Notes under the pieces: model-generated
The model's input: only the letters and a program-made list of their open reading frames with translations
Told to the model about the DNA's origin: nothing
The model's database searches: none
Shown here: piece after piece, positions 23,679-63,847 of the stretch
Position numbering within the stretch: the stretch's first letter is position 1
Layout: each line of letters starts with the position of its first letter
NCBI GenBank assembly: GCA_963847445.1
Contig: CAWJZV010000011.1
Location: 98,658-162,657 of the forward strand
DNA length: 64,000 nucleotides
From: an uncultured delta proteobacterium
GTDB taxonomy: Bacteria > Desulfobacterota > Binatia > UBA9968
Reading direction: 5' to 3'
Made by a program: the position numbers and the translations under genes

Positions 23679-23685
23679 CGGATAT

Positions 23686-24746: not shown

Positions 24747-24749
24747 CCT

Positions 24750-34662: not shown

Positions 34663-34666
34663 AACG

Positions 34667-37448: not shown

Positions 37449-37493
37449 CGCGAGACAGCAAGCGTCATCCGTCCCCATTGTGAGCGAACAATT

Positions 37494-39805: not shown

Positions 39806-40045
39806 CTCCGGGCGGCACGGCTGTCAGCCGAAGTAAGATTCGAGCAGATTGGCCGCAAAGAACGCAAAGGTCATAAATCGGAATCCGATGGGTAGGTGAA
39901 GCGGGCTTTTAAACCCGCTCTCTGGGTTCACAGATTGCTTGCAAAGATTTCGACTGCGACGGTAGAGATTCCGCTGGTCGTGTTATTCAAGGACAGTGTC
40001 CCCAAACAGGATGCCATTCGTCTCTTCTCGGCGGTCATAGGCTTT

Positions 40046-42355: not shown

Positions 42356-42468
42356 ATTTTGTTGACTTTTCACCGCAATTTGGCAAGTATCACCGACTGT
42401 TTCGCGGCGTCGGGGGCTGCCGCTCAGTGGGCAAGTTCAGGTACTTTTCACAGGGGGGGTGAAAGGCA

Positions 42469-42738
42469 ATGACCAAAGCAGAGTTGATCGAGGCGGTCGC
42501 CAAGAGCGCCAACATTACCAAGCTCACCGCGGGAGAGGCCGTCGACGCGACCTTCGATGGGATCGCCAAGGCGATCCGAAAAAACAAACGATTCCAGGTT
42601 CCCGGATTTGGCACGTTCACCGTGCGCTCGCGCAAGGCGCGCAAAGGCATCAATCCGCAGACCGGCGACGTGATTAGCATCAAAGCGAGCCGCACCGTCG
42701 GTTTCAAAGCCGCCCCGGTGCTCAAAAAGGGGTTATAG
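42469..42738 (+). CDS. hup: DNA-binding protein HU
   Basis: MTKAELI...GFGTF...ARKGINPQTG. Confidence 0.95.
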   Translation: MTKAELIEAVAKSANITKLTAGEAVDATFDGIAKAIRKNKRFQVPGFGTFTVRSRKARKGINPQTGDVISIKASRTVGFKAAPVLKKGL

Positions 42739-42755
42739 TATTTCGGTTACCGTCG

Positions 42756-42790
42756 AAGGCCACCGCGGGCAACCGGGTGGCCTTTTTTAT
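42756..42790 (+). terminator. Intrinsic terminator after HU
   Basis: AAGGCCACCGCGG-GCAA-CCGGGTGGCC followed by TTTTTT. Confidence 0.85.
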
Positions 42791-42958
42791 TTTCCGCGAA
42801 TCGACTTGCAATCGAGATGTCGAGCGGGATAAGCAGCCGAGCACCGAACGACTTTGGTGCCAGAAAGCCTGGGAGAGACTGGGTTGTCCCAACTGCAACC
42901 ATCGCTTGATGATGGCCACTGCGAAACGTACAATGGCAAAAAATTAGAAAGAGCGCTT

Positions 42959-43883
42959 ATGTCGCTTAAAACCGAAAAAATCTGGATGGATGGCGCATTG
43001 GTGCCGTGGGAGGATGCCAAGATCCATGTGCTTGTCGCATGGCTTGCATTACGGCACGGGATATTTTGAAGGTATTCGTTGCTACGAACTGGCCGACGGC
43101 CGCTCGGCGGTATTTCGTCTCCAGGAACATATGCAGCGGCTCGTCGACTCGGGCAAGATTCTTGGGATTTCCGCTGCCTTATTCCGTCGAGCAGATGTGC
43201 AAGGCGACGGTGGAAGTGATTCGCGCCAACCAGCTCAAGGCCTGCTACGTGCGGCCCTTGGCGTTTCTCGGTCTCGGTGAACTGGGCGTTTACGCGCCCA
43301 ACAATCCGGTCAACGTGTGCATCGCGGTGTGGCCCTGGGGCGCGTACCTGGGCGACGAGGGCATCAAGAACGGCATTCGCGCCAAGGTGTCGTCCTTCAC
43401 CCGGCACCATGTCAACGCGACCATGACCAAGAGCAAGACTTCGGCGAACTACGTCAATTCGGTGCTCGCCAAGGCGGAAGTGAAAAAGGCCGGCTACGAC
43501 GAAGCGATCATGCTCGACACCGAAGGTTATGTCTCGGAAGCGAGCGGCGAGAATATTTTCATCGTGCGCAACGGCAAAATCAAAACCACGCCCTTGACAT
43601 CGATCTTGCCGGGGATCACGCGGGAGTCGATCATCACCTTGGCGCGCGACAAGGGCTATCTGGTCGAGCGAGGAGCGCTTCACGCGCGATGAGCTGTACA
43701 TCGCCGACGAGGCGTTTTTTACCGGCACGGCGGCGGAGTTGACGCCGATCCGCGAAGTCGACGACCGCCAGATCGGCGCCGGCCGGCGCGGCCCGGTGAC
43801 CGAAGACATTCAAAATACTTTCTTCGATGTCATCAAAGGCAAGGGCGGCGGAAAAGTACGCTAGCTGGCTCTATCCCGTATGA
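42959..43883 (+). CDS. ilvE: Branched-chain amino acid aminotransferase (frameshifts)
   Basis: [36 protein letters not shown]. Confidence 0.93.
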
Positions 43884-43940
43884 TTCTCGCCGGATTTTTT
43901 AGTTGAATTTTACCGTCCAGCTTCGTTTAATACATCACAG

Positions 43941-44311
43941 ATGGCTGAGCCAGCGATCCGACACTGCGGGTGACGATGCTGCCGCGCGATACCAACGCGC
44001 GCGGCACGATCTTCGGCGGCGTGATCTTGAGCCATATCGACTTGGCCGGAGGCATCGCCGCGGCGCGCCGGGCGGCGCGGAACTTCGTCACCCGGGCGAT
44101 GCGCGAGGTCGAGTTCATCGCGCCGGTGTACGTCGGCGATGTCGTGAGTTTCTACACCACCGTGATTCGCGAGGGCAACACTTCGGTCACGGTGAAGGTG
44201 AGCGTGGAGGCGGAGCGGGCCAAGGATCCGGCACTGCGCGTCAAAGTGACGGAGGCTGAGGTGATCTACGTTGCCGTCGACGAAGCCGGTAAGCCGATTC
44301 CACTAAGATAG
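43941..44311 (+). CDS. Acyl-CoA thioesterase (hotdog fold, YciA-like)
   Basis: [32 protein letters not shown]. Confidence 0.9.
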
Positions 44312-44472
44312 CGATTCGCGGGGCTCCATAAGGTACCGCAGTAAGTTGATTCAACCTGCCAGATCCGTATAGCCGCCGGCGCGCCCGCTGCTCAAAGCGG
44401 TGCTCGATATGCCGGTGCAGTTCGCCGACGACGCCAAGTACAAGCACAATGCCGCGCAGCTCCTCGACGAGA

Positions 44473-45322
44473 TCAAGGATCGCCAGCGGCACACGCTGAG
44501 CCACCGTTCGCCTGCAAAAAACTCATCGCAGGTTGTTTTATCTCGTCGAGCCTCAACCAATGGCCGCGGTCGGGAAGCAAAACCAGCCGGTGCGGTTTGC
44601 CGAAGCTTCGCAGCTGATCGCGCAGTAGATTGGCTTGGGAAACTGGAATCATGCCGTCCTCGGTGCCATGCAGGATCAAGGTCGGCGCGCTCCAGCGTTC
44701 GGTTTCAGGCAAATAGTTTTGTAGCTTCGGCGCGGCATCGCCGTTGGGGTTGAGCAGTTTGCGGATCCAGATGCTGTGCGTGTCTTGATAGAGCCGCGGC
44801 AGATCGTAGGCACCGGCCAGCAGCACAACGCCTTTGACCGCTTCGATTTGGTTGATCAGGGCGGTGGCGATGACGGCACCGCGGGAAAACCCATAGAGAT
44901 AGATGCGAGTGGCATCGATCCAGGGCAACTGTTTGGCCAATGCGAGCGCATCGAAGAACCGCCTGCCTGGTTGTTTCCGCCGAGGGCTTACCGGCGAATT
45001 CGCTGCGACCGTAGCCCGGCAGCGATAACGCAAAGGTCGCATAGCAAAGTTCGCCGGCGAAAAATTGCGCCGCGGGCAGTAACCGCTGTGCGCCGATGCC
45101 GAACCAGCTATGGCCGTGCAGCATCAGCATCAGCGGAAATGGCCCCGGTCCGCGCGGCCGGGTGATATAGGCCTCGACTTTGCCGTCGGCGCTGGGGAAG
45201 AGAAAAGCGTTGGTGCTCGCTTCAGGCATTTGGCTCAAGTCGCGCATCGACATCGTCGTCATGTTGGCGCAGCCCGACAGCAGGACGGCGATTAGCAAGT
45301 TCGCGAGACTCAATCGATGCAC
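44473..45322 (-). CDS. Alpha/beta hydrolase lipoprotein, S9 peptidase-like (frameshift near 44955)
   Basis: Lipobox LLSGC, GPGPFP, GFSRG, HGTEDG, GH. Confidence 0.8.
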
Positions 45323-45400
45323 GTCATTTGTCTAACACCGCCGCTCGGGAAAGCAAGATGATTGCACCCTGGGGGCGCTTTCAGTATCAATGGTAGGCCT

Positions 45401-46311
45401 ATGACGCACCGATTATTGATCGCTCTATTGCTTTGGTTGGGGTTGATGTCGGCCTGCGGCGATGCCGGCCAAGACGGCCAAAGTTTTGCGCGTCGGCTTC
45501 GTGCCGTCGGAGGATGCCGCGCAGGTGATGCAGAATGCCCAGCCGATCGTCGAGATCCTGCGCCAAAAGTTGGCCATGGAAGTCCAGCCGTTCGTCGCCA
45601 CCGATTACACCGGCGTCATCGAAGCGCTGCGCGCCAACAAGCTCGATGTCGCGTTCCTGACGCCGGCGTCCTACGTGCTCGCCAAAAACGAAACCAACGT
45701 CAAAGTGGTGCTCAAGTCGGAGCGCAAGGGCATACCCTCTTATTACGCTGCGATCATTACCCGCGCCGACAGCGGCATTAAGACTCTCGAAGATCTGCGC
45801 GGCAAGACGCTTTGCGTTCGGCGACGCGCTGTCGACCACCGGTCATGTGTTTCCGCGCAAGATGTTCAAGGAACGCGGCATCGACCCGGTGCGCGATTTC
45901 AAGCAGGTGCTTTACTCCGGCGGCCACGATGCCACGGTGCTGGCGGTGCTCAACGGCAAAGTCGACGCCGGCGCCACCTACGCGAACTCGCCGGACAGCA
46001 AAGACACGGCGTGGATGCGTTACCTGAAAAATCCCGAAGACATCAAAAAAATTCACGCCATCGCGTTCTCCGAGCCGATACCGGCCGACAATCTCGTCAT
46101 CAACGGCAATCTCGACGAGCGCCTGGCGAAAAAAATCGAAAATGTCTTTATCGAGCTCTCGCGCGATCCCCAAGGCAAAAAAATGCTGCGCGAGCTCTAT
46201 CAGATCGACGGCTTCGTCAGCGCCACGGATAAGGATTACGACTCGGTGCGCCAGGCGTTCGTCGACGCCGGCATCCCGCTCAAAGAAGCGCTGCAGAAAA
46301 AGAAACCGTGA
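45401..46311 (+). CDS. phnD: Phosphonate/phosphite ABC transporter substrate-binding protein (frameshifts)
   Basis: VGFVPSE, TDYTGVIEALR, STTGH, SGGHDA. Confidence 0.88.
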
Positions 46312-47084
46312 ACATCCTCGAGATCCGCGACCTCCATACTTCCTACAACGACTCCGTGCCGGTGCTGCGCGGCGTCGATCTCAAGATCGACAAGGGCGAG
46401 TTTGTCGGCGTGATCGGTCTCTCCGGTTCGGGCAAGTCGACGCTGCTGCGCAGTATCAACCGCTTGATCGACGTCAACGCCGGCGCGATTATCGCGCCGG
46501 CGGCGCTGCTCGGCGGCACGAGCAACGGCATCATCGATATTCTCAAGCTTTCTCACTCGAGACTGCGCCATGTGCGGCGCCGCATCGGCATGATCTTTCA
46601 GCAGTTCAACATCGTCAAGCGATTAAGCGTCATCGACAACGTGCTCTCCGGCGGGTTGGGATACCAACCGGCTTGGCGCGGCACACTGCGGATTTTTTCC
46701 CAGGAAGAACGACGCCGTGCGCTGGTGAACTTGAAGCGAGTAGGGTTGCTCGACCATGCCTACAAACGCGCCGACGAGCTGTCCGGCGGCGAACAGCAGC
46801 GCGTTGCCATCGCGCGAACCTTGATGCAAGAGCCGGTGATTATCCTGGCCGACGAACCGGTTTCCAGTCTCGACCCGAAATTGTCGCGGGTCGTCTTGGA
46901 TATTCTCAAAAGAGTCTGCCGCGAAGACGGCATCACCGCGGTGGTGAGCTTGCATACGCTCGAACTCACGCGAGAGTACGCTGACCGGGTGGTGGGTTTG
47001 AAAGACGGGCAGATACTTTTCGATGGCGCCACCCACGAGCTCACCGACGCCATTGTCGACTCGATCTATGGGCCGATCGATTAG
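46308..47084 (+). CDS. phnC: Phosphonate ABC transporter ATP-binding protein
   Basis: [40 protein letters not shown]. Confidence 0.92.
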   Translation: MNILEIRDLHTSYNDSVPVLRGVDLKIDKGEFVGVIGLSGSGKSTLLRSINRLIDVNAGAIIAPAALLGGTSNGIIDILKLSHSRLRHVRRRIGMIFQQFNIVKRLSVIDNVLSGGLGYQPAWRGTLRIFSQEERRRALVNLKRVGLLDHAYKRADELSGGEQQRVAIARTLMQEPVIILADEPVSSLDPKLSRVVLDILKRVCREDGITAVVSLHTLELTREYADRVVGLKDGQILFDGATHELTDAIVDSIYGPID

Positions 47085-47093
47085 CTCCGGCCA

Positions 47094-48983
47094 TCAAGTT
47101 TTTTCGCTGTCTGTTGCGTCAAGCTTGTCCAGCGCATAACGATAGCCGGCGTCGATGATGGCGTCGACGCTGTGCCAATCGAAAACACCGAATTGGCTGA
47201 CTGGCGGCTCGAAGCATAGATCGGCTTGCGCTTTGGCGCTCTCAATGGCGCGCACGCCGGCGACCGTGGTGGTGCGGTACAACGTATGCAAAATATTCGG
47301 CAGGTCGGGTGTGAGGACAAAGGGATTGAGCCGTTGCCAGAGCAACTTCCAACCCGAGACACTGTAGCTTTGCGCCAGTGTGCTCTTGAACTCGGCTTGT
47401 TCGCTGACGTCGACAGCGAAGACTTGTCCTTGGCAAAGTTTTTTCATCGCCGCGACCGGAAGATTATCGACCAGGCCGCCGTCAACGAAGATTTCACCAT
47501 TCTCAATGGCCGGCGGGCCTATGCCTGGGATCGACACGCTGGCACGGACGGCTTTCCATAACGAACCTTGCCGATGTATCTTGGCTTCGGCGCGGGTCAG
47601 GTTGGTCGACACGCAAAAGAAGCCGGTGCGCAGATCGTCGATCGTGGCTTCACCGAGCATTCTTGCCAGCATCCGGTCCATGCGCTTGCCGGAATTGATC
47701 GCGATGAGTGGCAGCGTGTAATTCTTCTGCGGATGGCAGCGCGGCCATTCAGCGCGGTTGACTTGCGCCATGGTTTGCCAATCCCAGCCGAGCGCATGTT
47801 GCGCGGCGATCACTGCGCCCATGCTGGTGCCGCCGATGAAATCGATGGGGATCTGTCGTTCGGTGAGAGCGCGAATGACGCCGATATGAGCGAAACCACG
47901 AGCGCCGCCGCCGCTGAGAACCAGTCCCACCGCCGTGCCGGTGAAAGTGCGGACGAGTCTGGCGATGTCGCCTGAATGCGACGGCGCGATGTGATGATGC
48001 GCGGCGAAATCTAGCGTCGCGCGCCAACGAGCAGTCTCGGCGCGCCCAATAAACCGCGGTTCATGGAGTATGACCAATTCGATGGCGGTGGCGATTCTGT
48101 TCTCGGACAAATACCGACGCAGCCTGTGCAAATGCGCAACGTCCGGCGCGCTGTCGGCGGTGCCGACCACTAAGATCAAATCGGCTTGGCGAATGCACAA
48201 CTGGCTCCATGGGGAAAGTTCCGATTCGGCTTCATAGACGACAAAGCGATGGTTGGTTTCCAAACTGCTCAGGTGCGCGCTTAATTGTCCAGTGCCTTCG
48301 GGAGGCACCATTGTTTGATCGATTAGCCCGCACAGGGCAGGCAAGGTTTCTCGGCGCAGACGGAGCGTCGCACCGGCCGTTTGCATCGCTTCCGTCAGTG
48401 CCGCGGCAAACCTGTGCGGGCGGACAGGCTCTTCTGCCGGCACCAGCGCGATGGTGCGCAGATTGCGCCGTAACAACGCCGCGTCTCGCCCCCGCCGTTC
48501 GTGGCTGGCGAGTTGCACGGCGATTTGACGGATCAGTTTGGGATCCGATTTGACCGCGCTCTCGAAGGCTGGTTGGGAAATTCTAACCAGCTCGGTGTCG
48601 CGTATCGCCCACACCGACGCCGAACGCGACTCGCCGGTCAACAGGGCAAGTTCACCGACCGTATCGCCGCGCGCCAGTTCACGGAGCGATTCGGTTGTGC
48701 CATCGTCCCGGTCGATGGTGACGCGTAATCGCCCAGAGCGCACGACATACATGGAATCGCCCGCGGCGCCGGCGGCGAACAGCAACGCTCCGCCGGGGAG
48801 ATGGACCGGCTCCAATTCGGCCTGTAGGTGGTTGAGCGTCGCCGGATTGAGCCCGGCGAAAAAAGGCATGGCTAAGAGGTCGGCGAGTTGTTCGGGTGAA
48901 AACATCGGGGGCTGGCGGTTCACGCGAGATGACTTCCCGTTTAGCGCTGCCTTGACATACTTGATTGCCGAATCGCTTTGCAA
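47094..48983 (-). CDS. cNMP-binding patatin-like phospholipase (NTE-like architecture); start may be near 48905
   Basis: Phosphate-binding cassette GELALL...RSA; patatin motifs GGGARG, GTSMG and DGG all intact. Confidence 0.92.
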   Translation of the reverse strand: MQSDSAIKYVKAALNGKSSRVNRQPPMFSPEQLADLLAMPFFAGLNPATLNHLQAELEPVHLPGGALLFAAGAAGDSMYVVRSGRLRVTIDRDDGTTESLRELARGDTVGELALLTGESRSASVWAIRDTELVRISQPAFESAVKSDPKLIRQIAVQLASHERRGRDAALLRRNLRTIALVPAEEPVRPHRFAAALTEAMQTAGATLRLRRETLPALCGLIDQTMVPPEGTGQLSAHLSSLETNHRFVVYEAESELSPWSQLCIRQADLILVVGTADSAPDVAHLHRLRRYLSENRIATAIELVILHEPRFIGRAETARWRATLDFAAHHHIAPSHSGDIARLVRTFTGTAVGLVLSGGGARGFAHIGVIRALTERQIPIDFIGGTSMGAVIAAQHALGWDWQTMAQVNRAEWPRCHPQKNYTLPLIAINSGKRMDRMLARMLGEATIDDLRTGFFCVSTNLTRAEAKIHRQGSLWKAVRASVSIPGIGPPAIENGEIFVDGGLVDNLPVAAMKKLCQGQVFAVDVSEQAEFKSTLAQSYSVSGWKLLWQRLNPFVLTPDLPNILHTLYRTTTVAGVRAIESAKAQADLCFEPPVSQFGVFDWHSVDAIIDAGYRYALDKLDATDSEKT

Positions 48984-49001
48984 GCAGCGGAAACTTGGGG
49001 A

Positions 49002-52000
49002 TCAGCCACCGTCACCGAAGACGACGAAGGGTGCCCAGAACATCGGGTGGGCGTAGCTGTAGGACTTGCCCGCAGTTTGCTGCATGACCGCGAGCGAAGC
49101 GTCGCGCAGCGCTTGGGCGCGGCTGAGCTTGGTTTGTTCGGTTTGGCGCTTGAACAATTCGGTTGTGAGCAGTTTTGCTGAGACGGTTTCCACCGGCCAG
49201 TGTGAAACCAGCAAGGCTTTTGCGCCAGCAAAAAAGAATGCGCGGCCAAGTCCAGAAACCGCTTCCGAAGCCTGGCCATCGGCGGATGCGGTGTTGCAGG
49301 CCGACAGCACGACCCAATCGGCGCGCAACTTCAATTCAAGTATCTCGGCGAGGGTCAGCAAGCCATCGTCTTTTTCATTGGTGATTGTCGGATTGCTCAA
49401 CGCCAACGCTGGTTGGGACAGCTCGGGCAATTCACCGGCGACCAGGCCGTGGGTGGCGAACATGACGACGCGGTATTGAGAGAGATCCGATTGTTTGACG
49501 AACTGTTCCGAGGCGCTCTTGCCGAGATGAACATCGTTCCCGGTGTCTGCGCGCAATATCTTGGCGATGTCACGGACTTCCTCGGAGGTGTCGGGCAAGG
49601 GTTCGAGCAGTTCGAGATTGCTCGATCGCCGTTGTCCTTGCCCGGTGTTCGCCGGTGCTCCTAGCGCCATCGCATTACGCCGCACGATTCCGCGCGACGC
49701 AACCGACGTTGAGACGCCGCTCGGCGTCTGGTTTGCTTTGAACAACGGATCGCCGAAGCCGATAAAACTTTTTGCCGCCGGCTGCGCCACAGTGGTTCTG
49801 AGACTTGCCAGCGCGCTGAGCGAAGGCAGATAGGAAATCGCTACTTGTTTGAGCAGCCACGGTGCCTCGGCATGCTCCGCGAAAGGTGTGCTGCTCTGGC
49901 TGGTCTTGGTCGGCTTGAAAGGAGCTGTGACCAGCACGGAAAGCGGAATTTCACTCAAAGCACCGTGCGAAACGATGATCAACTCCCTGGCGCCCTTCCA
50001 TCCAGCCTCCACGGGAGCCAGCAATTTACGATAGAGATCGTAGGCGGTGTCGTACTCGAAGGCCGGCAGTTTGTTAATATCGACGTCGCTCGGGTCGAGG
50101 ACTTTGCGCAATCGGGCGACACTTTCAACCAGCGATGCCTGCGGCAAATCGACAACACTGAACGACGCTTGCCCGTTTGCTTTCACGGCCCAAACTAGCG
50201 TCTTGTCTTGCGTCGTGTACAGAGAAATCAGCGCTTCATCCGCGCGCAGGAGTTTTTGGGTGTCGGCAATCGTCTGGGTTTTCGGCTCCATGAGTTCAAC
50301 GTAGTTGGGCATCTTGAGCCGCAGCTCGGCTTGAGCCTTTTCATTGTCTTGGCGCAAACGGACAAGCTCGGCTTGAGCTTTGGCTAACGCTTGCGCTTTC
50401 TCCTGACTGTTCTCCGAGCTTTGTAGAATGGTCAGCGATTCGGATGCGACCTTGACGGCGTGTTCCAAATCCTGGGCGCGGCGCATTGCCGCGGCGGATT
50501 CTGGGTCGTTGTTTCCGGCGCGCACGATCGCCGCCGAGAGCGCCTTCTGAACTTTGCTGCCGCGCGCCACGTCAGCCATGCGAAAAGCTTCGGCGGCGGG
50601 CTCAATTCCTTCTACTCGCGCGCCCTTTTGGTGCATGTCGGCCAGCAAGGCGATGTAGCCATCCAAAAACCAATTGAGCCGCGCCGAGGAAAGATAACCG
50701 TCCTCGCCAGCAGTATTCTTATCCCGACGTAATTCTAAGATCTTCGGGATCGCCGCCGACAGCGTTTTAATCGCCGCATCTCTTTGACCAATGGCGCCAA
50801 GGCCGAGGGCGTGAAACGCCCGGCCATCCCAGAGCCGGACCGAGCCTGCGTCATCGAACTTTTCCCGGAACTTGAGAATTGACCCTAACATCGCCAGCCC
50901 TTCCTGGGTGCGGCCGAGGCGCAGCATGACATAGCCCCACTCGGGAGAGATGGTTCCCGTCAGCGCACTTTGCTGCTTATTCGCCCGTTGGCCGTCGCGC
51001 CAGGCTTTGAAAATCTCGTCCGCTTTGAGCCAGTTGCCCTGGGCCATCTCGCTCTGCGCCAACAATAGGCGCATGTCGGCAACTTGAACGCCGCCCTCGC
51101 CGCCGGGTATTCTCTGCAACTGAGCGATGGACGTTTCAATTAGACTTGTCGCTTCACGAATCAATCCTTGCTCTAAATAAACCCGCGCTATCGAACGGGA
51201 CACCGCCGACGCTTCGAAACTGTCGCGCTGCTGCTTCTGGGCGACAACGCGCGCGGCTTCGCGGGCGTCGTTGATGTAGGCGCCGGCTTCGCGAACTTTG
51301 CCGACAATGGCGGCGTGTTCCATCGCCCGGCTCAGACAGCGCGGCAGATATGGGTACCATATTCCAGATGTCCTTGGGATTTTTGTCGAGGTAGGAACGA
51401 ATGGCCGTTACGCAAGTACGGTAGTCCGCTTCGGCATCTTTAGGGAAGCCAAGCATGGCATTTACGTTAGCTTTGGCATCGCTCAGCAGCGCTTCCCAGA
51501 GGTCGCGAAACTGCGGCCAGTCCCGATTCGTAGCTCTGACCGCGGCGAATAATTCGTCCGCCGTGGCGAGATAGCGTTTGCCCCCTTCCCGATCGAGCAG
51601 GCGCACGGCGATGCCCGCCAAGAAGTTTGCTTGAAAAAATTTTCTGCCGCGGTCGGCGGTGACTTGAAGGGCGTTTTCACGCATGCCTCTGGCGCCGTGC
51701 CAATCGCCGGAATCGACCAATGCCCGTGCCGCTGAGTCGTAAAGTGAATACGACAGCGGATCTTTCGGGCCGACGATGCGAATGGCTTCGTTGAGTTCGC
51801 GCAATTGTCGGTCTGTGTCGCGCTGGGCGCCAGCGGCCTGAGCCCGTGCCAGATAGATTTTTACCAACTCTGCCTTCGGCGTGTTGTTCGGGTCCGGCGG
51901 CGGGGCGTCGAGAATGGCCTGCGACCTTGAGGATTGTTCAGTGCTCGGTGCGGCCGCAGCGAACAGGCGACCATTGCCGCTCGCGATTGTCAGCGCGATT

Positions 52001-52032
52001 GTCAGGACCATGACTGTGCCGTGCATTATCAC
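49002..52032 (-). CDS. Secreted TPR-like/CHAT caspase-like protease, copy 2 (frameshift near 51350)
   Basis: Hydrophobic N-terminus, long helical repeat region, catalytic FATHG and LSACNT, terminal HPMFWAPF. Confidence 0.9.
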
Positions 52033-52076
52033 CCCGTGATTCCAAAGATGATGGCTGATTTTCTCTCAGAGCTTGG

Positions 52077-55000
52077 CTACCCGCCATCGCCGACGACGAC
52101 GAAGGGCGCCCAGAACATCGGATGAGCGTAGCTATACGACTTGCCCGCCGATTGCTGCATAACCGCAAGCGAAGCTTCGCGCACAGCCTGGGCGCGGCTG
52201 GATTTTTGCATCGCTAGACTGTCGTTTGAACAATTCCGTCGTAAGCAGTTTCGCCGACACCGTTTCCACCGGCCAGTGGGATACCAGCAAAGCTTTGGCG
52301 CCGGCGAAGAAAAAGGCGCGGCCCAGGCCTGAGACCGCTTCGGATGCCTGGCCGTCGGCGGATGCGGTGTTGCAGGCCGATAAGACGACCCAATCGGCGC
52401 GCAACTTGAGGCCGAGAATTTCCGCTAGTGTGAGCAGGCCGTCTTCTTTCTCTCCCGTAATAGCCGGATTGCTGAGCGCCAACGCCGGTTGGTTCAATTC
52501 CGGCAACTCGCCCGGCACCAAGCCGTGAGTCGCGAACATGACGACCCGGTAGGCGCTGAGGTCGGCGTTTTTCACCGACTGCTCGCTGGCGCGTCGGCCC
52601 AGGTGAATATCGCGGCTCTCGTCGGCGCGGAGAATTTTCGCGATGTCGCGCACTTCGTCGGCGGTGTCAGGCAGGGCTTGGAGCAATTCCAAATTGCTCG
52701 TCGGCGAACTCGGCGCCGCAGGAGCCTTGGCATTACGCCGCACCATGCCGCGCGCAGCGACGGGCGCGGCTGCTTTCGCGCCGCCACCAAAAACCGGATC
52801 GCCGAAGCCGATAAAACTATTTGCCGCTGACGGAGTCGCGCCGCGGCGCAGGCTTGCCAGCGCGGACAACGATGGCAGATAAGAAATCGCGGCGCTCCTG
52901 AGCAGCCAGGGCGCGCCGCCGTGGTCGCTAAACGGAATGCCGGCTTTGTTCGGCTGATAGGCGCTCGTGACCAGCACCGAAAAAGGCAGTTCACTGAGCG
53001 CGCCATGGGGCACGATGATCAGTTCCTTGGCGTTTTTCCATCCCGCTTCCACAGGCGCCAAGAGTTTTTGATAGAGTTCGAGCGCTGTGGCGAAATCGAA
53101 GGTGGGCACTTGGCTGATGTCGGCTTCGGTCGGGTCGAGAGCTTTGCGCAGTTTGGTGACGAGCTCGGCAACCTTCGCGCTGGGCAGATCGACAACTTGA
53201 AATGCCGGCTGCCCTTGGCCTGCCATCGCCCAGACCAGCGTTTGCTGTTGCGTCGAGTAGAGGGAAATCAGCGCTTCTTGCGGTTTCAGCAACTTCTGCG
53301 CATCACCAATGGTCAGTGGTTTGGCATTCAACAATTCCGAATAGTCGGGCAGCTTGCGCTTGAGCTCGGCTTGGGCCTGGTCATTTTCCTCGCGCACTCG
53401 TGCCAGCTCCGCGCGGGTTTTGTCGATGACTTTTTCACGATTGGGATCAGGTTTGTCAGGTTTTACGCCTTGCTGCAGGGCGGTGAGCGCCTCCGAGATC
53501 GCTTTGACCTGGTAGTCGAGATCTTGGGCGCGCCGCAGTACCGCGGCTAGTTGTGGGTCGTTGATGCTGGCACGCACGATGGCGGCGGAGAGCGCCTTCT
53601 CGACGCGGCTGGCGCGGGCCAAATCGGCGATGCGAAACGCTTCGACGTAAGGTTCGATTCCAGCGGTACGAACTTTGGCGCGGTGCAGATCGGCCAAGAG
53701 CGCGATGTAGCCCTCCAAGATCCAACCGGTCCGAGCCGAAGTGAGAAAACCGCTCTCCGTGGACCCCTGGCCGCGTCCTAACTCAAGGAGTTTAGGAATG
53801 GTGACAGCCAATGTCTTAACCGCGGCTTCCTTATCGCCGGCAGCGCCGATACCGAGTGCATGAAACGCACGGCTATCCCACAAATATAGCGAATCGTCGT
53901 CGAATCGTTTTTGGCTTGTCGTGAGATCCGCGTTAAGAACGTTCATCGCCTCTTGGGTCTTGCCGAGGCGCAGCAGCGCGTAGCCCCAGTCAGGCACATT
54001 TTCCGTGTCGAGCTCTTCTGCCTGCGCCTTGTTGGCGCGTAAACCGTCGCGCCGGGCACGAAAGTGCTCTTCGGCTTTGAGCCAATTCCCTTGAATCATT
54101 TCCAACTGCGCGGCGAAGAGACGGACAGCGCCGACTTGCAAGGACGCTTCGCCCTGTTGAAATTTTTCGCTGCGGCTGATCGTCGAGTCGATTAGCTCCT
54201 TAGCTTCAGTCAACAGTCCCTGTTCGAGATATACCCGCGCGATGGGCCGCGCCGTGCGCGTCTCAAACAGCAGCCGCTGATGCGCTTGGGCATAGGCTTT
54301 CGCTGTTTCGCGGACATCGTTAACATAGGCGCCCGCCTCGCGCAGGTATCCGAGCCGCGCCGCCAGCTCCACGGAGCGGCCCAGACACTGGGGCAAATAG
54401 TAGTAGCTATTGTCCGCCGGATTCGGGGTTTTGCCCATGTAGCTGCGAATCGCCGTGGTGCATGTGCGGTAATGGCTCTGAGCTTCGATGAGGTAGCCGA
54501 AAGAAAGGTTATAGTTGCCCTTGGATTCGCTGAGCGCCGCTTGCCAAAAATTGCCGAAACGTCCCCAGTCTGGATTGCCGCGGCGCACCGAGGAAAGCAG
54601 GCTGTCGGCGCGCGACAAATAGGTTTTGGCGCTGTCGCGGTCGCGCAGTACGGCGCTGATCGAGCTAAGATAATTGAGTTGAAAGAATTGCCGTCCGGCG
54701 CTTCCAGCGACCTCTAACGCCAACTCGCGCGCGGCGCGGGCACTGACATAGTCGCCCCGGTCTAGATCGAGCGGCGCGCGGCGATTGTAGAATTCATAGG
54801 CGTTCGGATCTTTTGCCCCGACGGCTTGAATTCCGGCATCGAGTTCTTTCAATTCCCGGTCCAAATCGCCAAGTGTGCTCGCCGCCCGGCCGCGCTCCAT
54901 ATAGATTTTCGTTAACGCCGCTTTGGAGTGTTCCTTGGGGTCCGGTGGTGGCGCGTCGAGAATCTTTTTTAACTCCTCTGCTGGCAACCTGGGGGCGGCC

Positions 55001-55077
55001 GCACTGGCGGCAAAACTGTTGTTGCTGAGGAGTAATGCCAGAATCAGTATGGCGAGAAAAAAGTTCGATTGTTTCAC
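52077..55077 (-). CDS. Secreted TPR-like/CHAT caspase-like protease, copy 1 (frameshift near 52200)
   Basis: Signal peptide MKQSNFFLAILILALLLSNNSFA; FATHG and LSACNT; end HPMFWAPFVVVGDGG* in the shifted frame; RBS GGAGG. Confidence 0.92.
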
Positions 55078-55360
55078 TAAATCCTCCGAAGACTAGCAGC
55101 GGCCGATAGCCGCTCCACAAGGACGCTATGCTGTTCACGCTAAGTTAAGAGAACGACGCTAGTCCGTCAATCCCATGTCAACTTCCTTTTCGCGCGGTTT
55201 TTGACTACCCTGGCGCCGCATCTATCCTTTTGTCTTGGCGTATTATGGCTGGTGTCTGCGACTTCCGCGTGGTGAATATCGTAATTTCGACCGGTGGCAC
55301 AGTTTGCTTGCCGCAGTTGCTGGGCTGCATTAGGCCTCATGGTGGAGCCATGATTCGGAG

Positions 55361-57246
55361 ATGAAACTCCTCCAGACACTACGGCGCCGCAAACGTCGGT
55401 TCTTCAAGTCGCTTCTGTTGGGCGTAGGCGTCAGCATCCTGGTTTCCATCGCTTCCTATCTGGGCTATCTGGATTCGATCGAAGCCAAAGCCTTGGACCT
55501 GCTCCTGCGACTGCGCGGCCAGCAGCGTTCGCCGGAGATCGTGCTGATCAAGATCGACGACCAGGCGTTCGCCAAACTTGGCGAGAAGCAGCCGTTGCCG
55601 CGAGACTATATCGCGAGCCTGGTCGATGTCGCCGCTCGCGGCGGGGCTAGGGTGATAGGGATCGATATCGAATTCAAAGTGGCTACCGATCCTGTTGCAG
55701 ACCAAAAACTGCTGACGGCGATCGCTGCCGCCGAAGCCAACGGTGTGACCAAGGTCGTGCCGGTTTTCGTGATTCGCCCGGCGCAAGAGGATGAGCAAGG
55801 GCTTACTTACCGCCACCTGCCGTTTTTCGATCCGGGACTCAAAGTTGTTGCTGGCTTTGCCAATGCGCCGATGGATGGCGATGGGCTGGTCCGCCAAGTG
55901 CCACTGGCGGTGCGCGGCGAAAACGGGACGATTCTGCCGTCCTTCGCGCTCGCGGTGTTGGCGCGTCACGCGGGCTACGACAGCACGAGCTTGAGCCAAC
56001 AATTGCACGGAAGGCCAACGTCCGTTTGAATCTGCCCGAGTGGCATAAGCTGAACGGTAAACTTTTACCGAACTTAACTCCCTTTGAATTTCACCTCGAC
56101 GAAAGCTGGAAAATCAATTTCGCCGGCGGCCAAGGCAGTTTTGCATCCCTGCCAAGTGAGCCGTTGGCGCAATTGGCGCGTGCCAACATTCCGTTGGCCG
56201 CCGACAATCCGTTCCGCGGCAAGATCGTTTTGATTGGCGCGAGCTTCCAGGAGAGTCGAGATTTTTTCGCCACGCCGAACGGTCTAATGAGCGGCCTGGA
56301 AATTCACGCCAATATTATCCACACGCTTTTGACCCGGTCGCACATCAAGCCAGCCAACCGAATCTTGGCGCTGTTGCTATTGCTGCTCTTCGCTGTCGCC
56401 GCGAGTGTTTTGACCACCCTGCTCAGGCCTGCAACCGTGATCGTTCTATCGCTCGTCGTCATTCCCGTGCTGTTGTTGCCATTGAGCTACGCCGCGCTGA
56501 CGCAATTGGGATTGTGGGTGGACTTCGTGACGCCGCTGTTGGTCACCAGCTGGGGCGCACTGGCCACGGAATACCGCGACAGCCGGCAGGTGCGTAAATC
56601 GCTGGGTGAGTTTGTCGGTTGGGAAGTCGCCGACCAGATCGTCCATCAAGACGAAGATTTGCAGGGAAAGAGCTTTGAAGTCTCGGTATTTTTTACCGAT
56701 GTCAGAGATTACACGACGCTCTGTGAAAGCGCGTCGCCAGACCAGATCGCGGCATTGATGCGCGAAGTATTTGGAGTCATGGGAAAAGTCATCGCCAGTC
56801 ACGGCGGCCATATATTCGACTTTATCGGTGACGCGGTACTGGCGGTGTTCGGCGCGCCGAAAACCAATCCAAATCATGCCGATGCCGCGGTGCAAAGCGC
56901 TATCGAGGTTACCGCCGCGCTTGACGAACTCAATGGGCGATGGGAAAAAAGGGGCATCCCGCGGCTGCGTATCGGTGTGGGAATTCACAGCGGTCCAGTG
57001 GTGATCGGCATCGTCGGCACGGGAGAGCGCAAGAAATATGACGTCACCGGAGATACCGTCAATACCGGATCGCGGGTCGAGGGTCTCAACAAAGAGACCG
57101 GCACGACGATTCTGATTACCCGGGAAACCATGGGGCAACTCAAAAAGCAGTTTGCTATCCGCCCCTGTGGTACAGTGAAGGTCAAGGGCCGGGCGCAAGC
57201 CGTCGAGGTGTTTGAAGTCAAATCCGCTGGAGCGGTGGAAGGTTGA
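55361..57246 (+). CDS. CHASE2-domain membrane class III nucleotidyl cyclase (frameshift near 56025)
   Basis: TM, CHASE2 (IVLIKIDD, GIDIEF, DGDGLVR, GKIVLIG, SGLEIHANI), three TMs, cyclase FTD / IGD / GIHSG / GDTVNTGSR. Confidence 0.92.
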
Positions 57247-58202
57247 GATTTATCGCCATGAAAAGAGCTGGGTTTTTCGCTGGGTCGGGAGCATTGGTTT
57301 TTCTCGTGTCGCTGGTTGGGGCAGTCTCGGCGCAAGACGCGGTCGCGGTCATCACCGAGCTTAAGTTCAATCGTGGCGATATTCAGCTACGGGTTTCGAG
57401 TAACGCCGCGCCGGCAAAGCCCGCGGTGCTGCAATCGCTCTATGCCGGCAACGTCGTGCAGACTACCAAGGACGCAGTGGCGGTGATTTTCTTTACCGAT
57501 GGCTCGCCCATGGTGACTGTGGACGAGAAGAGTCCGAGCTTCCAAGTTCGGCTATCCACGGCCAAGGGTAGCGCGGCGGGGTCGGGCGTAAAGGAAGTCG
57601 CCAGCCTGCTGGTCGGCAAAAAAAAACCGCCGACCTACGTTGCGCTGTCGGTACGCGGCAAGGCGCAGCCGCCGACGCTGTTGTCGCCGCGCAACAGCAA
57701 GATCTTGTCCGAGGGGCCGACCTTCCACTGGATGGGCATGGATCAGCAGCCCGGCACGGTCAAAGTATTCGGCCCGCAGGGGGAGATTTGGAGTGCGCAG
57801 AACATCAATCTGACCAAGATCGCCTATCCGGCGACTGCGCCGCGCTTGCAAGCCGATGTTGAATACGGCTGGTCAATCGAGAAAAAGGGTGTCGCCGCCA
57901 GCAAGACGACTTTCAAATTGCTTGGTGGGTTGGAGGCGCAGGCGGTCAAAGAACGCTTGGCCGAACTGGCGGCCATGGCTGGCGCATCGAAAACCACGCT
58001 GGCCGTGCTCAAGGCCAACCTGCTTATGTCGAAGGAACTGTTCCATGATGCTCGGGAAATCTTGATCGAAGCGATCGGCGCCGACAGCGATGAACCGACG
58101 CTGCATTTCGTCCTGGGCGAACTTTACGACAAGATCGGTCTGAAAAATCTCGCCACCGAAGAGTACAACGAGGCGGAGTATTTGGCGAAGGCCAAACAGT
58201 GA
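57243..58202 (+). CDS. Secreted protein with FecR-like N-terminal domain, DUF928-like middle and C-terminal TPR
   Basis: Signal peptide ending VSA-Q; L.AG..VQT...AVIFFTDGS; SVRG...LLSPR...PTFHW; LHFVLGELYDKIG. Confidence 0.65.
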   Translation: MRFIAMKRAGFFAGSGALVFLVSLVGAVSAQDAVAVITELKFNRGDIQLRVSSNAAPAKPAVLQSLYAGNVVQTTKDAVAVIFFTDGSPMVTVDEKSPSFQVRLSTAKGSAAGSGVKEVASLLVGKKKPPTYVALSVRGKAQPPTLLSPRNSKILSEGPTFHWMGMDQQPGTVKVFGPQGEIWSAQNINLTKIAYPATAPRLQADVEYGWSIEKKGVAASKTTFKLLGGLEAQAVKERLAELAAMAGASKTTLAVLKANLLMSKELFHDAREILIEAIGADSDEPTLHFVLGELYDKIGLKNLATEEYNEAEYLAKAKQ

Positions 58203-58418
58203 AAGATCGAAGGATTCACACAGAGGGCACAGAGAAGCAGATTCAAGAGATTCGGAAGTTTTACCGCAAAGAACGCGAAAAAATCCGAGTTCGGAGGGGC
58301 GTAATCGGACATTCGCCCCGGGGTGGTGGAGCGGCCTCCGCGGTTCAAATTATTCCGGTTAGCGCTTGCTTGAACGAATATTTCGGTGGAGGAATAGCAA
58401 TTCGCGAGGAGCAATCGT

Positions 58419-59357
58419 TTGGCCGCCGATCGCAACCAAGAAGTAACTTACGATATCCTGGACGAAGCGCCGGTCCGGCCCAAACGGGGCGGGCGGTTCT
58501 TCGTTTTCTTAGGAATTTTGCTCATGGTCTTGGCTTGGTCGTTTCACGGCGCGAAGATTCGTCCCGGTGAATTGATCGAGGGGATACCGCAGATCGGCCA
58601 GACTCTGGCGCGCATGCTGCCGCCGGATTTTTCTAAGATCACCGACGCGAAGCACTACTACTTGCCGGAGCAGCTTTCGTTAGGTGAGCTGCTGCTGCCG
58701 GCACCTTTGGGCGACGCCGAGACCAGGGCTCGACAGCGTTGGTGGGACAATACCTTCCCCCAGACCGTGATGGGCGCGACGCTGGAAACTATCCAGATGG
58801 CGTTGGCCGGCACTTTCCTTGCGCTGATCGTTGCCTTCCCGCTAGGGTTTTTGGCCGCGCGCAACACCACGCCCCATCCGGCGGTCTATCGCGGCGTGCG
58901 CCTGGTGCTGAATCTGGTGCGGACGATACCCGATCTCGCGCTGGGCCTGCTTTTCGTTGCCGCCGTCGGGCTGGGCGCTTTCGCCGGCACCATCGCATTA
59001 GCGATTCATACCGCGACGGTGTTGGGTAAACTGTTGTCCGAGTCGGTGGAGAACATCGACGAGGGCGTGGTCGAAGCGATTCGCGCTACCGGCGCCGGTT
59101 ATGCGCAGATTCTTTCTTTCGCCGTGGTGCCGCAGATCCTGCCCGACCTGATCTCATTCACGCTGTACCGCTTGGAAACCAACATCCGCGCCGCTTCAGT
59201 CTTAGGCCTGATCGGCGCCGGCGGCATCGGCTATCTGATGAACACCAGCTTTCGCACCTTTCAGTATCAGGAAGCGGCGGCGATCGTGCTGGTCTTGATC
59301 GCTTTGGTCATGCTGGTGGATTACTTGAGCTCTCGGCTGCGCAATCTCGTCGTTTAA
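58419..59357 (+). CDS. phnE: Phosphonate ABC transporter permease
   Basis: ETIQMA, LAARN, RTIPDL, GKLLSESVE, RLETNIRAASVLGLIGAGGIG; RBS GAGGAG. Confidence 0.93.
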   Translation: MAADRNQEVTYDILDEAPVRPKRGGRFFVFLGILLMVLAWSFHGAKIRPGELIEGIPQIGQTLARMLPPDFSKITDAKHYYLPEQLSLGELLLPAPLGDAETRARQRWWDNTFPQTVMGATLETIQMALAGTFLALIVAFPLGFLAARNTTPHPAVYRGVRLVLNLVRTIPDLALGLLFVAAVGLGAFAGTIALAIHTATVLGKLLSESVENIDEGVVEAIRATGAGYAQILSFAVVPQILPDLISFTLYRLETNIRAASVLGLIGAGGIGYLMNTSFRTFQYQEAAAIVLVLIALVMLVDYLSSRLRNLVV

Positions 59358-59663: not shown

Positions 59664-60516
59664 ATGATTCGCACCGTTGGATTAGTTGCCAAATATCATG
59701 AAGCCAAGGCGGCGCAGATGGTCCGCTGGCTGATTCCCTGGCTCAGGAAGCGCGGCAAAAAGGTCTGCGTCGAAAACGGCTTGACGCCGCGCGGCGCGCA
59801 CTCTTGTACCAAGAAGGAAATGGCGGCTCAGGCCGATCTGATCATCTCCCTGGGCGGCGACGGCACGCTGCTCAACATCGCGCCGCTGGTGGTGCGGCCC
59901 GAGGTGCCGATCTTGGGCGTCAACATGGGCGGTTTGGGCTTTATCACCGAGGTGGCGGTCGGATGAATTGAAATCGGTGCTCAGCAAAACCCTGGCCGGC
60001 GATTATGAAGTGGAAAAGCGCATGACTCTGGAGGTGCGGGTGATCAGCAAGAAGGGCCGCCTGCGCCGGTTCCGTGTGCTCAACGACGCGGTGATCGCCA
60101 AGGGCGCGCGCAGCCGCATCATCGACTTGGAAACTTACGTCGGCGATGAGTATCTATGCACCTACCGCGCCGACGGTTTGATTATCTCCACGCCCACGGG
60201 GTCGACGGCGTATTCATTGGCGGCGGCGGGACCGATCCTCGAGCCGACCTTGGGCGCGATTGTGCTATCGCCGATCTGCCCCCATACGCTGACCAACCGG
60301 CCCATCGTCGTGCCGAGCGACGCGCCGATTCACGTCACCCTGCGATCCTTTGGCGACACGGTGATTCTCAGCCCCGACGGGCAAAAAGGGCTGCGCCTCA
60401 ACAATGGCGACAAGGTGGAAGTTCGCGACTTCGGTCTGCCGGTGTCGCTGATCAAGCTGCCGTCGCGTAGTTATTATGAAATTCTCCGTGAAAAACTCAA
60501 ATGGGGAGAGCGTTAG
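59664..60516 (+). CDS. nadK: NAD kinase (frameshift near 59962)
   Basis: LGGDGTLL, GVNMGGLGF, LND, ADGLIISTPTGSTAYSLAA. Confidence 0.95.
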
Positions 60517-62550: not shown

Positions 62551-62614
62551 GCTGCCCCCATATTGGGGGCAACTCTGGGGGCAACTGGGAGACCTGGAAA
62601 GTGAGTTGCCCCCA
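62551..62614. promoter_or_regulatory. Putative integrase arm-type binding sites
   Basis: TGGGGGCAACT at 62564 and 62576; inverted AGTTGCCCCCA at 62604 and GCTGCCCCCA at 62551. Confidence 0.7.
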
Positions 62615-62615
62615 C

Positions 62616-63847
62616 ATGCCGCTGACCGACACTACGATCCGTTCGGCCAAGGCCCCGGCCAAGACCTTCAAGCTGTTCGATGGCGGCGGCCTGTATCTGG
62701 AGGTCAGCCCGGCCGGCGGCAAGTGGTGGCGCTGGAAGTATCGCTTCGGCGGCAAGGAGAAGCGGCTTTCCTTCGGCGTCTATCCCGACGTCAGCCTGAA
62801 GGCGGCGCGCGAGAAGCGCGACGACGCCCGCCAGCAGCTCGCCGCCGGCATCGATCCTGGTCAGGCCCGCAAGGCGGAGAAGCTCGCGCAGGCGGGCGCC
62901 GAGAGCTTCGAGGCTATCGCGCGCGAGTGGCACGCGAAGTTTTCGCCGGGATGGGTCGCGAGTCACGGCGACCGCATCCTGCGCCGGCTCGAAAGGGATG
63001 TCTTCCCTGGCTCGGCAAGCGGCCCATCGCCGACATCAAAGCGCCCGAGCTGTTGGCCGTGCTGCGCCGGATCGAGAGCCGGGGCGCGCAGGAGACCGCG
63101 CACCGCGCGATGCAGAACTGCGGGCAGGTGTTCCGCTACGCCGTGGCGACGGGCCGCGCCGAACGCGATCCGACGGGCGATCTGCGCGGCGCCCTGCCCC
63201 CACCGAAGGAGAAGCACCACGCCTCGATCATCGAACCGAAGCGCATCGCGCGAACTGCTCCGGGCGATCGACGGCTACGAAGGTTTCTTCGCGACGAAGT
63301 GCGCGCTGCGGCTCGCGCCGCTGGTCTTCGTGCGGCCTGGCGAGTTGCGCAAGGCGCAGTGGCCGGAGATCGATTTCGGAAAGGCGGAATGGCGCATCCC
63401 CGCCGAGCGGATGAAGATGCGCGAGCAGCACATCGTGCCGCTGTCGCGCCAAGCCGTCGAGATCTTGCGCGAGTTGGAGCCGCTGACGAACCGCGGGATC
63501 TCCGCCAAACCGGATGCGCCTCGCTACGTTTTCCCGGCGCCGCATCGCGCGAGCGACCGATGAGCGAGAACGCCATCCTCGCTGCGCTGCGGCGCATGGG
63601 CTACGCGAAGGAAGAGATGACCGGCCACGGCTTCCGCAGCATGGCGTCGACGCTGCTGCACGAACAGGGCTGGAACCATCAAGCGATCGAACGCCAGCTC
63701 GCCCACGCCGAGCGCAACGCCGTGAGCGCGGCTTACAACTTCGCCGAACATCTGCCGGAGCGGCGCAAGATGATGCAGGCTTGGGCGGACTATCTCGATG
63801 GGCTGAAAGGCGGCGCCGAAGTGATACCGCTGTTCAAGAGGGCGTAA
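62616..63847 (+). CDS. P4-family tyrosine integrase with arm-binding domain (frameshifts near 63005, 63250 and 63545)
   Basis: MPLTDT, DGGGLYLEV, GVYPDVSL, RPGELR, HGFRSMAST, QLAH, AAYN. Confidence 0.95.

Follow-up and report, generated by a model that had tools for sequence, protein, structure and literature searches.

A CHASE2 cyclase and a secreted MtxA-like partner as the core of a candidate envelope-signalling cassette with exchangeable cyclic-nucleotide readers

What do five adjacent genes of an uncultured delta proteobacterium do together when they encode two secreted caspase-like proteases, a receptor-type nucleotidyl cyclase, a further secreted protein and a lipase with a cyclic nucleotide monophosphate (cNMP)-binding domain? 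The genes lie at 47094..58202, in two divergent sets with three on the minus strand and two on the plus strand, of a stretch of 64,000 nucleotides (nt) that we call the window (contig CAWJZV010000011.1 of assembly GCA_963847445.1, positions 98,658 to 162,657). A first reading of the letters, the original prediction, took them for a candidate signalling and defence module. We favour another reading, to which we give a probability of about 0.6: the genes form an accessory envelope-signalling cassette in a variable slot of a phosphonate-type ATP-binding cassette (ABC) transporter operon, made up of a cyclase–partner core, a CHAT protease and a swappable cNMP reader. It is a new variant of a signalling theme, CHASE2 cyclase with FecR-type partner, which has itself already been described.

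In the mechanism that we propose, the core would be a receptor-type class III cyclase with a periplasmic CHASE2 sensor, acting with a secreted MtxA-like partner. A secreted TPR/CHAT caspase-like protease would belong to the cassette as well, in the window as a tandem duplicate that is divergently transcribed. A periplasmic event may be relayed through the partner, possibly after its processing by the CHAT protease, to CHASE2. The cyclase would then make a cyclic nucleotide to be read by cytoplasmic cNMP-binding proteins. In the window's genus, the neighbouring reader would be an NTE-type patatin lipase, implying membrane-lipid turnover, and in most related genera it would be a cNMP-binding DASS anion transporter.

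The predicted core: a CHASE2 cyclase and a secreted partner

Scanning metagenomes with an alignment of the partner family gave 80 loci (partner identity 33-88%). In 65 loci, the contig extends more than 160 nt upstream of the partner gene, and 64 of these have a cyclase orthologue as the immediate upstream neighbour, in the same orientation; the exception is L201 (loci, genomes and contigs carry our own L, G and C numbers). The remaining 15 loci have at most 155 nt upstream and are not part of this count. In the window, the spacing from cyclase to partner gene is 11 bases. As judged from this gene order, the conserved core is a predicted two-gene operon that encodes a CHASE2 class III cyclase and a secreted FecR-like/Ig-like/TPR protein of the MtxA-like kind.

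Pfam finds CHASE2 (PF05226) in the cyclase at 4-141 and 162-250, over the two open reading frames (ORFs) into which the gene is split in this assembly (3e-25 and 3.3e-14), and Guanylate_cyc at 2e-30. The CHASE2 domain lies between an N-terminal hydrophobic segment and a later hydrophobic block, which is consistent with an extracytoplasmic sensor. The class III catalytic residues, two metal-binding Asp and the transition-state Asn and Arg, are present in the motifs FFTDVRDY, IGDAV and GDTVNTGSR; they align to those of solved cyclases and are kept without change by all 21 orthologues. Among proteins of solved structure, the top matches are 6FHT, a phytochrome-linked adenylate cyclase (6.2e-28), and 2W01 (1e-27), which we take to be the guanylate cyclase Cya2, although the title of the entry reads 'adenylate cyclase'. 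At the purine-selecting position, the window's cyclase has Asp, compared with Glu in 2W01 and Lys in 6FHT. All 21 orthologues have this Asp at the Lys/Glu specificity position; at the second selecting position, D, G, S, T and A occur; and none of the 21 sequences has the adenine-selecting Lys and Asp pair of adenylate cyclases. Because an invariant Asp stands in place of the adenine-selecting Lys, the sequence does not point to a particular product of the cyclase.

The partner starts at the MK of position 57258 (314 amino acids (aa), or 319 aa from an upstream TTG). Its family has a length of 314-316 aa and comprises 140 clusters at E <= 0.001 among the candidates scored. In Pfam, the protein reaches 22.1 bits for DUF928 (PF06051), compared with a cut-off of 26 bits, and has a weak TPR match; some close family members are annotated with PF06051 or TPR families in precomputed records. 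A structure model, confident for residues 141-319 only, predicts a beta-sandwich at 145-226 and helices at 229-318. The best fold match of this model in Foldseek is the C-terminal domain of MtxA (4Z29; E 2.2e-7, template-modelling score 0.63 on target). The modelled protein thus has an architecture like that of MtxA: about 313 aa, with a signal peptide and with Ig-like and then TPR parts at the C terminus.

The N-terminal part of the partner is probably FecR-like. Pfam gives no FecR (PF04773) match in the partner; hhalign of the N terminus of the partner family with the N termini of FecR-bearing partners gives 83.9% (E 7.8e-6) over a stretch that is partly signal peptide, and the FecR motif itself is visible. 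The most conserved stretch of the partner, LxGKKKPPxYxxLxVRG (residues 120-140, window 57600-57670), is part of the linker that joins the FecR-like to the Ig-like part and was modelled with low confidence. It might, at a guess, be where the partner is bound or cleaved, or its role may be structural only.

Each of the two other CHASE2 cyclases of the genome (contigs C41 and C27) has a TPR protein encoded after it. FecR is detected in the C41 follower; the C27 follower is split, and only its TPR part is detected. Secreted partners of FecR type recur beside CHASE2 sensors, and within this theme one tight subfamily is marked by the MtxA-like partner.

Secreted proteases accompany the core

Both proteases match CHAT (PF12770), CHAT2 at 4.8e-52 and CHAT1 at 1.5e-43 with the profile cut at 251 of 289 positions, and both contain the THG and SAC motifs that hold the His and Cys of the dyad. 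The N-terminal 292-aa ORF of CHAT2 is homologous to the N terminus of CHAT1. Like the partner, both start with a hydrophobic stretch and then have an Ala-rich site; topology and signal peptides were read by eye from the translations.

The partner gene is present in 17 of the 61 genomes and 9 of the 23 genera of the window's family, and 15 loci were fetched. A CHAT gene is adjacent in 11 of the 12 evaluable loci, which bears out the co-occurrence of CHAT, CHASE2 and DUF928-like genes that the original prediction had stated. The tandem duplication of CHAT is also found in L013, and other genera have two copies as well (L211 and L219). Joint loss of CHAT, cyclase and partner has left remnants in L016, L019 and L220. 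The unit that is gained and lost is, by gene content, apparently CHAT together with cyclase and partner.

Among the 66 metagenome loci with a scanned neighbour (from two ORFs on either side), CHAT is found in 8, a Peptidase_C14 caspase in 5 and a convergent Peptidase_M23 in 9 (five proteins, already characterised earlier, were left out of the final Pfam scan). All CHAT and C14 neighbours inspected have signal-peptide-like N termini. In a distant branch of the cyclase–partner pair (33-39% identity), the convergent Peptidase_M23 gene is located just downstream in L168, L169, L177, L184, L190, L195, L196, L198 and L202, and the adjacent secreted Peptidase_C14 caspase of L182, L189, L191, L194 and L200 has Ig-like domains. 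Two loci have a further gene between CHAT and the CHASE2 cyclase. In L134 (5781-6281), it encodes a 166-aa membrane protein that matches Pfam PycTM, an effector domain of the pyrimidine cyclase system for antiphage resistance (Pycsar), at 4.8e-15; the ORF of L217 (3809-4354) matches the L134 protein (phmmer 3e-84).

The neighbouring candidate cNMP reader changes between relatives

The lipase of the window has the domains of an NTE-type patatin. On the 629-aa ORF, Pfam places cNMP_binding at 60-146 (5.1e-21), NTE_Ploop at 174-334 (1.3e-27) and Patatin, with GxSxG and DGG, at 354-512 (2.9e-32). The motifs, a GELAL...RSA cassette, GGGARG, GTSMG and DGG, are kept in orthologues of 57-79% identity.

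With the patatin as query, we obtained 39 species loci, 16 of them close (56-90% identity) and 23 distant (31-45%). In four of the close loci (L013, L014, L015 and L018), CHAT adjoins the patatin, with cyclase and partner where the contig allows; three others (L017, L021 and L027) are not evaluable or are located elsewhere. At phmmer E <= 1e-3, the neighbours of the cNMP-patatin in the 23 distant loci include no CHAT, cyclase or DUF928-like partner, and no patatin neighbours were found in the 80 metagenome cassette loci. The linkage of patatin and cassette is restricted to the window's genus. A search of gene neighbourhoods for a cNMP-patatin beside CHAT and CHASE2-cyclase, which had been proposed as a check, gives linkage in this genus and none in the other loci searched. 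Some loci come from bins with labels that may be wrong: L023 ('Binatia') and L026 ('Chloroflexota') have the permease-patatin-ATPase order of deltaproteobacterial metagenome-assembled genomes, and L037 ('Moraniibacteriota') has a distant cNMP-patatin only.

Other relatives have other readers. In the window's family, a cNMP-binding effector is adjacent in 7 of the 10 evaluable loci, as a cNMP-TPR-DASS protein in six and as a patatin in one (L208, of the window's genus). The common order in the family is ATPase, CHAT, cyclase, partner, convergent cNMP-DASS, further genes and permease, which is the ABC slot of the window. In L220, the cassette has decayed and the DASS gene is kept. Among the metagenome loci, a cNMP-TPR-DASS transporter is adjacent in four, plus one fragment, and a small cNMP-binding protein in three; an AI-2E family transporter comes next in L153 and L156, and the contig of L150 ends first.

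Because three effector architectures occur beside one cyclase family and this genome has only 11 cNMP genes, chance is hard to invoke. A predicted cNMP-binding effector is usually, not always, the next gene, and its output domain appears to be exchangeable. One theme that the ABC transporter, the DASS transporter and the lipase might share is the scavenging of phosphate or sulfur. Away from the cassette, a 939-aa cNMP-binding ORF (G000:C9:74006-76822), which we take for a cNMP-DASS homologue by its length, has the cNMP domain that is closest to that of the patatin in the genome (phmmer).

The split genes are errors of this assembly

As the letters stand, 1-nt frameshifts split three of the five genes (both CHATs and the cyclase), which had gone unnoticed in the original prediction. 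The cyclase, a single 628-aa ORF in the relative G004, is split into 222 and 406 aa near 56014, and CHAT2 into 292 and 773 aa near 51369. The final 42 codons of CHAT1 are in another frame after a shift near 52202, and its C terminus runs on to a stop at 52077.

Were these frameshifts real, the cassette would be turning into pseudogenes. Three of five genes out of frame, and relatives in which true remnants exist (L016, L019 and L220), would fit such decay. However, the frame-shifted parts contain no stops and are 90-95% identical to G004, and essential genes of the window show breaks of the same kind. When compared with the ORFs of G004, its closest relative, 7 of the 12 genes in 43-62 kb of the window are split by single-base changes, including those for the ABC binding protein (45468 and 45808) and NAD kinase (59960). 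The topA gene is found in two overlapping frames (37494-38549 and 37958-39805), as is dprA (36248-37114 and 37017-37448). Single-base breaks in housekeeping genes are spread over window 33838-45322 and 59664-60516. Relatives carry errors of their own, with the CHAT gene of G004 in two frames and the patatin gene of G003 in three.

Contigs from four other public runs, of three studies, served as a check set for the indels. Relative to them, the window has one letter too many at each site. All 4 runs lack a letter at 51369, and all 4 lack one at 56010 and another at 56015; at 52200 or 52203, a letter is absent from each of the 3 runs with cover there. Each of these changes restores the frame. 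Because housekeeping genes are broken alike, the shifted parts are stop-free and the contigs of other runs restore all three frames, the three frameshifts are errors of this assembly. All five genes should therefore be functional. We rejected the pseudogene reading on the comparison with G004, the broken housekeeping genes and the contigs of the other runs, and decay of the locus is hardly credible. The practical lesson is that a split gene in this assembly is no evidence of decay, and that pseudogene calls need checking against other data.

Locus and genomic setting

Coordinates are collected in Table 1. Gene order and strands are as the original prediction described them, and Pfam confirms the stated domains apart from DUF928, which is sub-threshold, and FecR, for which it gives no match. 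All of the catalytic motifs named there are found in the translations, and the predicted topology agrees, with signal-peptide-like N termini on both CHATs and on the 319-aa protein, and a cyclase that apparently runs from a transmembrane segment through CHASE2 and a hydrophobic block to the catalytic domain.

Table 1. Features of the locus, in window positions
Feature	Position	Strand	Basis or remark
cNMP-binding/NTE-type patatin lipase, predicted cytoplasmic	47094..48905	-	603 aa from ATG, TGA checked, frame intact
CHAT2, secreted TPR-like/CHAT caspase-like protease, tandem paralogue of CHAT1	49002..52032	-	Pfam, ORF homology
CHAT1, secreted TPR-like/CHAT protease, orthologue of the single CHAT in relative G004	52077..55077	-	Pfam, 95% identity to G004
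Divergent intergenic region between CHAT1 and the cyclase operon, 283 nt	55078..55360	.	Presumed promoters, by position only
Transmembrane CHASE2-sensor class III nucleotidyl cyclase, 628 aa in relatives	55361..57246	+	Pfam, G004 ORF
Secreted partner: signal peptide, FecR-like beta domain, basic linker, Ig-like (DUF928/MtxA-like), TPR	57258(57243)..58202	+	Family, model, fold match
Left flank: phosphonate-type ABC binding protein (two assembly frameshifts) and ABC ATPase	45362..47084	+	Pfam Phosphonate-bd, ABC_tran
Right flank: ABC permease	58419..59357	+	Pfam BPD_transp_1

In the window, the block separates the ATPase gene of a phosphonate-type ABC transporter from its permease gene. In relatives, this ATPase is next to the cassette or the patatin, and this permease comes after the partner gene or the patatin. 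Beyond the transporter are NAD kinase and a recN-like gene on the right, and topA, dprA and GTPase genes on the left. The G+C content of the five genes (0.574-0.603) is like that of the flanks, with no shift in composition. A scan of 46900-58700 for promoters and terminators was at chance level, with 3 sites compared with 3.4 expected by chance; one promoter-like site (55201-55228, plus strand) is inside the divergent intergenic region.

We considered a mobile or defence island and ruled it out, given the uniform composition and a sole recombinase-like gene that is 4.4 kb to the right, past NAD kinase and recN. A phage-integrase central domain (2.7e-27) is encoded on the far side of recN at 62606-63847, close to where the window ends on the right, and this gene may mark the border of an integrated element. 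Elsewhere in the window, a MoxR-type AAA_3 ATPase, a DUF58 protein and two VWA proteins form a row that resembles a Bat/MoxR-like operon (22674-29085). Upstream of it, a 1057-aa protein contains DUF7948, SBBP, DUF11 and CARDB (14327-17500).

Relation to known systems

Sinorhizobium meliloti has the CHASE2 adenylate cyclases CyaD1, CyaD2 and CyaK, and the neighbours of cyaD1 encode the cyclic AMP (cAMP) receptor Clr, the FecR-domain protein SMc02177 and periplasmic SMc02178; the cyclase cascade controls secondary infection in response to a plant signal (PMC5498481). As in our locus, a receptor-like CHASE2 cyclase, a FecR-domain protein and a cNMP receptor are encoded together, in a genome with many cyclases. 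The two differ in that the receptor there is a Crp-type transcription factor, whereas here it is a lipase or transporter, and in that no CHAT protease is described there. This likeness is one of domains.

Magnetospirillum gryphiswaldense offers the best fold match for the partner. Its mtxA gene is followed by a CHASE2 adenylate cyclase gene, and the protein was considered specific to magnetotactic bacteria, with no homologues and no assigned function (PMC4439547). According to that source, MtxA is secreted, is about 313 aa long and has an Ig-like part at 142-226 and TPR at 227-313, similar to the beta-sandwich and helices modelled for our partner, and its gene likewise adjoins that of a CHASE2 cyclase. 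Unlike in our locus, mtxA precedes the cyclase gene. In sequence, the partner-family profile does not reach 4Z29 among PDB sequences at E <= 1, at which it finds weak TPR matches only.

Other sensors have similar company. In the 'BiofilmReg' operon of Burkholderia, a LysM-FecR protein is encoded beside a CHASE2 histidine kinase (PMC5192318). A secreted FecR-domain protein next to a CHASE2 sensor is thus common to both; the operon differs in its output through a histidine kinase and response regulator, in having LysM instead of Ig-like/TPR parts, and in having neither a protease nor a cNMP. The factor recognised by CHASE2 is described in the same text as not known (PMC5192318). In Nostoc, a CHASE2 gene is reported to adjoin a DUF928 gene (PMC5587647).

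The lipase has the domain order of the NTE/PNPLA6-PNPLA7 lysophospholipases: cNMP_binding, NTE_Ploop, Patatin. The eukaryotic proteins differ in being membrane-anchored and in having several cNMP domains each. We found no report of cNMP regulation of a bacterial NTE-type patatin in the open papers searched.

The combination as a whole had been put forward as one not known to be characterised. In our searches of open papers, none linked a CHASE2 cyclase to both a CHAT protease and a cNMP-gated lipase or transporter, and to that extent this holds. It does not hold for the parts, because a CHASE2 cyclase, FecR partner and cNMP receptor are together in S. meliloti, and MtxA accompanies a CHASE2 cyclase in Magnetospirillum.

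Discussion

The original prediction, taken in full, is of one dedicated circuit in which CHAT processes a ligand, CHASE2 senses it, and the resulting cNMP switches on the patatin, as a defence or suicide module akin to Pycsar or to the cyclic-oligonucleotide-based antiphage signalling system (CBASS). All of its parts have the right topology and intact motifs, and a cNMP effector often adjoins the cassette. In PADLOC, the cNMP and cyclase domains match Pycsar models (PycC 2.6e-20, PycTIR 3.4e-12) and the patatin domain matches CBASS phospholipase effector models, and the small PycTM-like membrane proteins of L134 and L217 point the same way. These matches are, however, at the level of domains, with none that is system-specific, and NCBIfam gave no match above its curated cut-offs: the patatin has 86 bits for RssA, compared with a cut-off of 272, and 40.6 bits for CBASS_lipase, compared with 200. 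Pycsar pairs a PycC-type cyclase with a cNMP-binding TIR or transmembrane effector and protects against phage. Our locus resembles it in that a class III-type cyclase adjoins a protein with a cNMP-binding domain, and differs in that the cyclase is a transmembrane, outward-looking CHASE2 receptor, unlike the known Pycsar cyclases, and the effector is a patatin or transporter rather than TIR or transmembrane; for Pycsar, PADLOC yields shared-domain matches only. With CapV of CBASS, the lipase shares a patatin fold with GxSxG and DGG and, by prediction, control by a nucleotide signal; here, however, the ligand domain is a CAP-type cNMP domain and PADLOC found no CD-NTase (the nucleotidyltransferase of CBASS) among the scanned proteins of the five genes, for which the cyclase was represented by its G004 orthologue. 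Given the lack of a CD-NTase match and the low CBASS_lipase score, we rejected membership in CBASS. The usual neighbouring effector is a transporter and no killing device, the patatin is separable from the cassette, and the setting is core chromosome without a shift in composition, where the nearest genes are those of an ABC transporter, NAD kinase and a recN-like gene and more distant ones include topA and dprA. The defence role is not upheld by these results, and the full circuit seems to us decidedly unlikely; the locus looks like an envelope-signalling module and no known phage defence.

A more serious alternative to the signalling cassette, which we nevertheless consider doubtful, is that the genes are neighbours by history only: cassette and patatin would be unrelated tenants of a recombination-prone ABC slot, and the patatin would answer other cyclases. 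The slot indeed holds the patatin alone, the cassette with DASS, or the cassette with the patatin in different relatives, none of the 23 distant cNMP-patatins has a cyclase neighbour, and the genome has 15 class III cyclase loci. Conversely, cNMP genes adjoin the cassette outside the ABC slot too, in L147 and L148 with a HemN-like flank and in L153 and L156 with the AI-2E transporter, and the existence of three effector architectures argues against chance, given that a neighbour picked at random would rarely carry the domain.

Several observations weigh against the signalling cassette as we propose it. With 15 cyclase loci, and with 11 cNMP-binding genes in 7.2 Mb, adjacency in this genome need not mean a dedicated wire. 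The patatin stands alone between permease and ATPase in 7 of the 16 close loci (L020, L022, L023, L024, L025, L026 and L028), and in two (L016 and L019) it has only remnants of CHAT, cyclase or partner beside it. In G006, a genome of 99% completeness, DNA that matches the patatin region is present, yet no partner gene was found at E <= 1e-10. Across the phylum, CHASE2 cyclases are mostly among housekeeping genes. From a sample of the 40 top-scoring, one per genome, four were dropped when the ORF picker missed the cyclase; the neighbours of the 36 counted include FecR in five, a ShlB-type transporter in one and a cNMP-binding protein in one, and CHAT, patatin and DUF928 in none. The FecR-domain protein of S. 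meliloti is dispensable for perception of the plant signal (PMC5498481) and an mtxA mutant has no phenotype (PMC4439547). Our counts have their own limits, in that neighbours were taken from a crude ORF picker and identified by phmmer and Pfam only, and many loci are kin, with near-duplicates (L189/L191, L177/L178, L168/L169 and L145/L158/L159), which means that they overstate the number of independent events.

These points bear most on the patatin. Because it is alone in seven species, and G006 has a match to its region and no partner gene, the patatin is independent of the cassette, and its standing as a fixed member falls: it is linked only in the window's genus, beside remnants in two loci and in 0 of 80 cassette loci. 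The circuit logic survives in part. By gene order, the cyclase does pair with a neighbouring cNMP effector (7 of 10 family loci, with two further architectures in metagenomes), and it is the patatin that is exchangeable and non-exclusive. Within the signalling cassette, the patatin is a plausible, exchangeable output, not an exclusive one, and with 15 cyclase loci in the genome it may listen to several.

We can also imagine a stronger version of the signalling cassette, a 'protease-gated receptor', although we think it unlikely to be right as a whole. The periplasmic CHAT (or C14 in distant relatives) would cut the MtxA-like partner, possibly at the basic linker, and so switch CHASE2 on or off. 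A nucleotide other than cAMP, proposed because Asp is invariant at the selecting position, would then directly gate the NTE-type lipase, DASS or AI-2E-linked proteins, with no transcription factor. If true, this would be the first defined ligand logic for CHASE2 and would give MtxA a function.

For the wider family, a partner gene that follows the cyclase so consistently, with a secreted protease alongside, provides concrete candidates for what CHASE2 senses. The match to MtxA in structure and neighbourhood suggests that this protein is part of a much wider set of CHASE2-cyclase partners, and the identity of the nucleotide is put in question by the invariant Asp. The swapping of effectors, from lipase to DASS and AI-2E-linked transporters, would be a clear case of a cNMP acting directly on bacterial membrane proteins and lipid enzymes.

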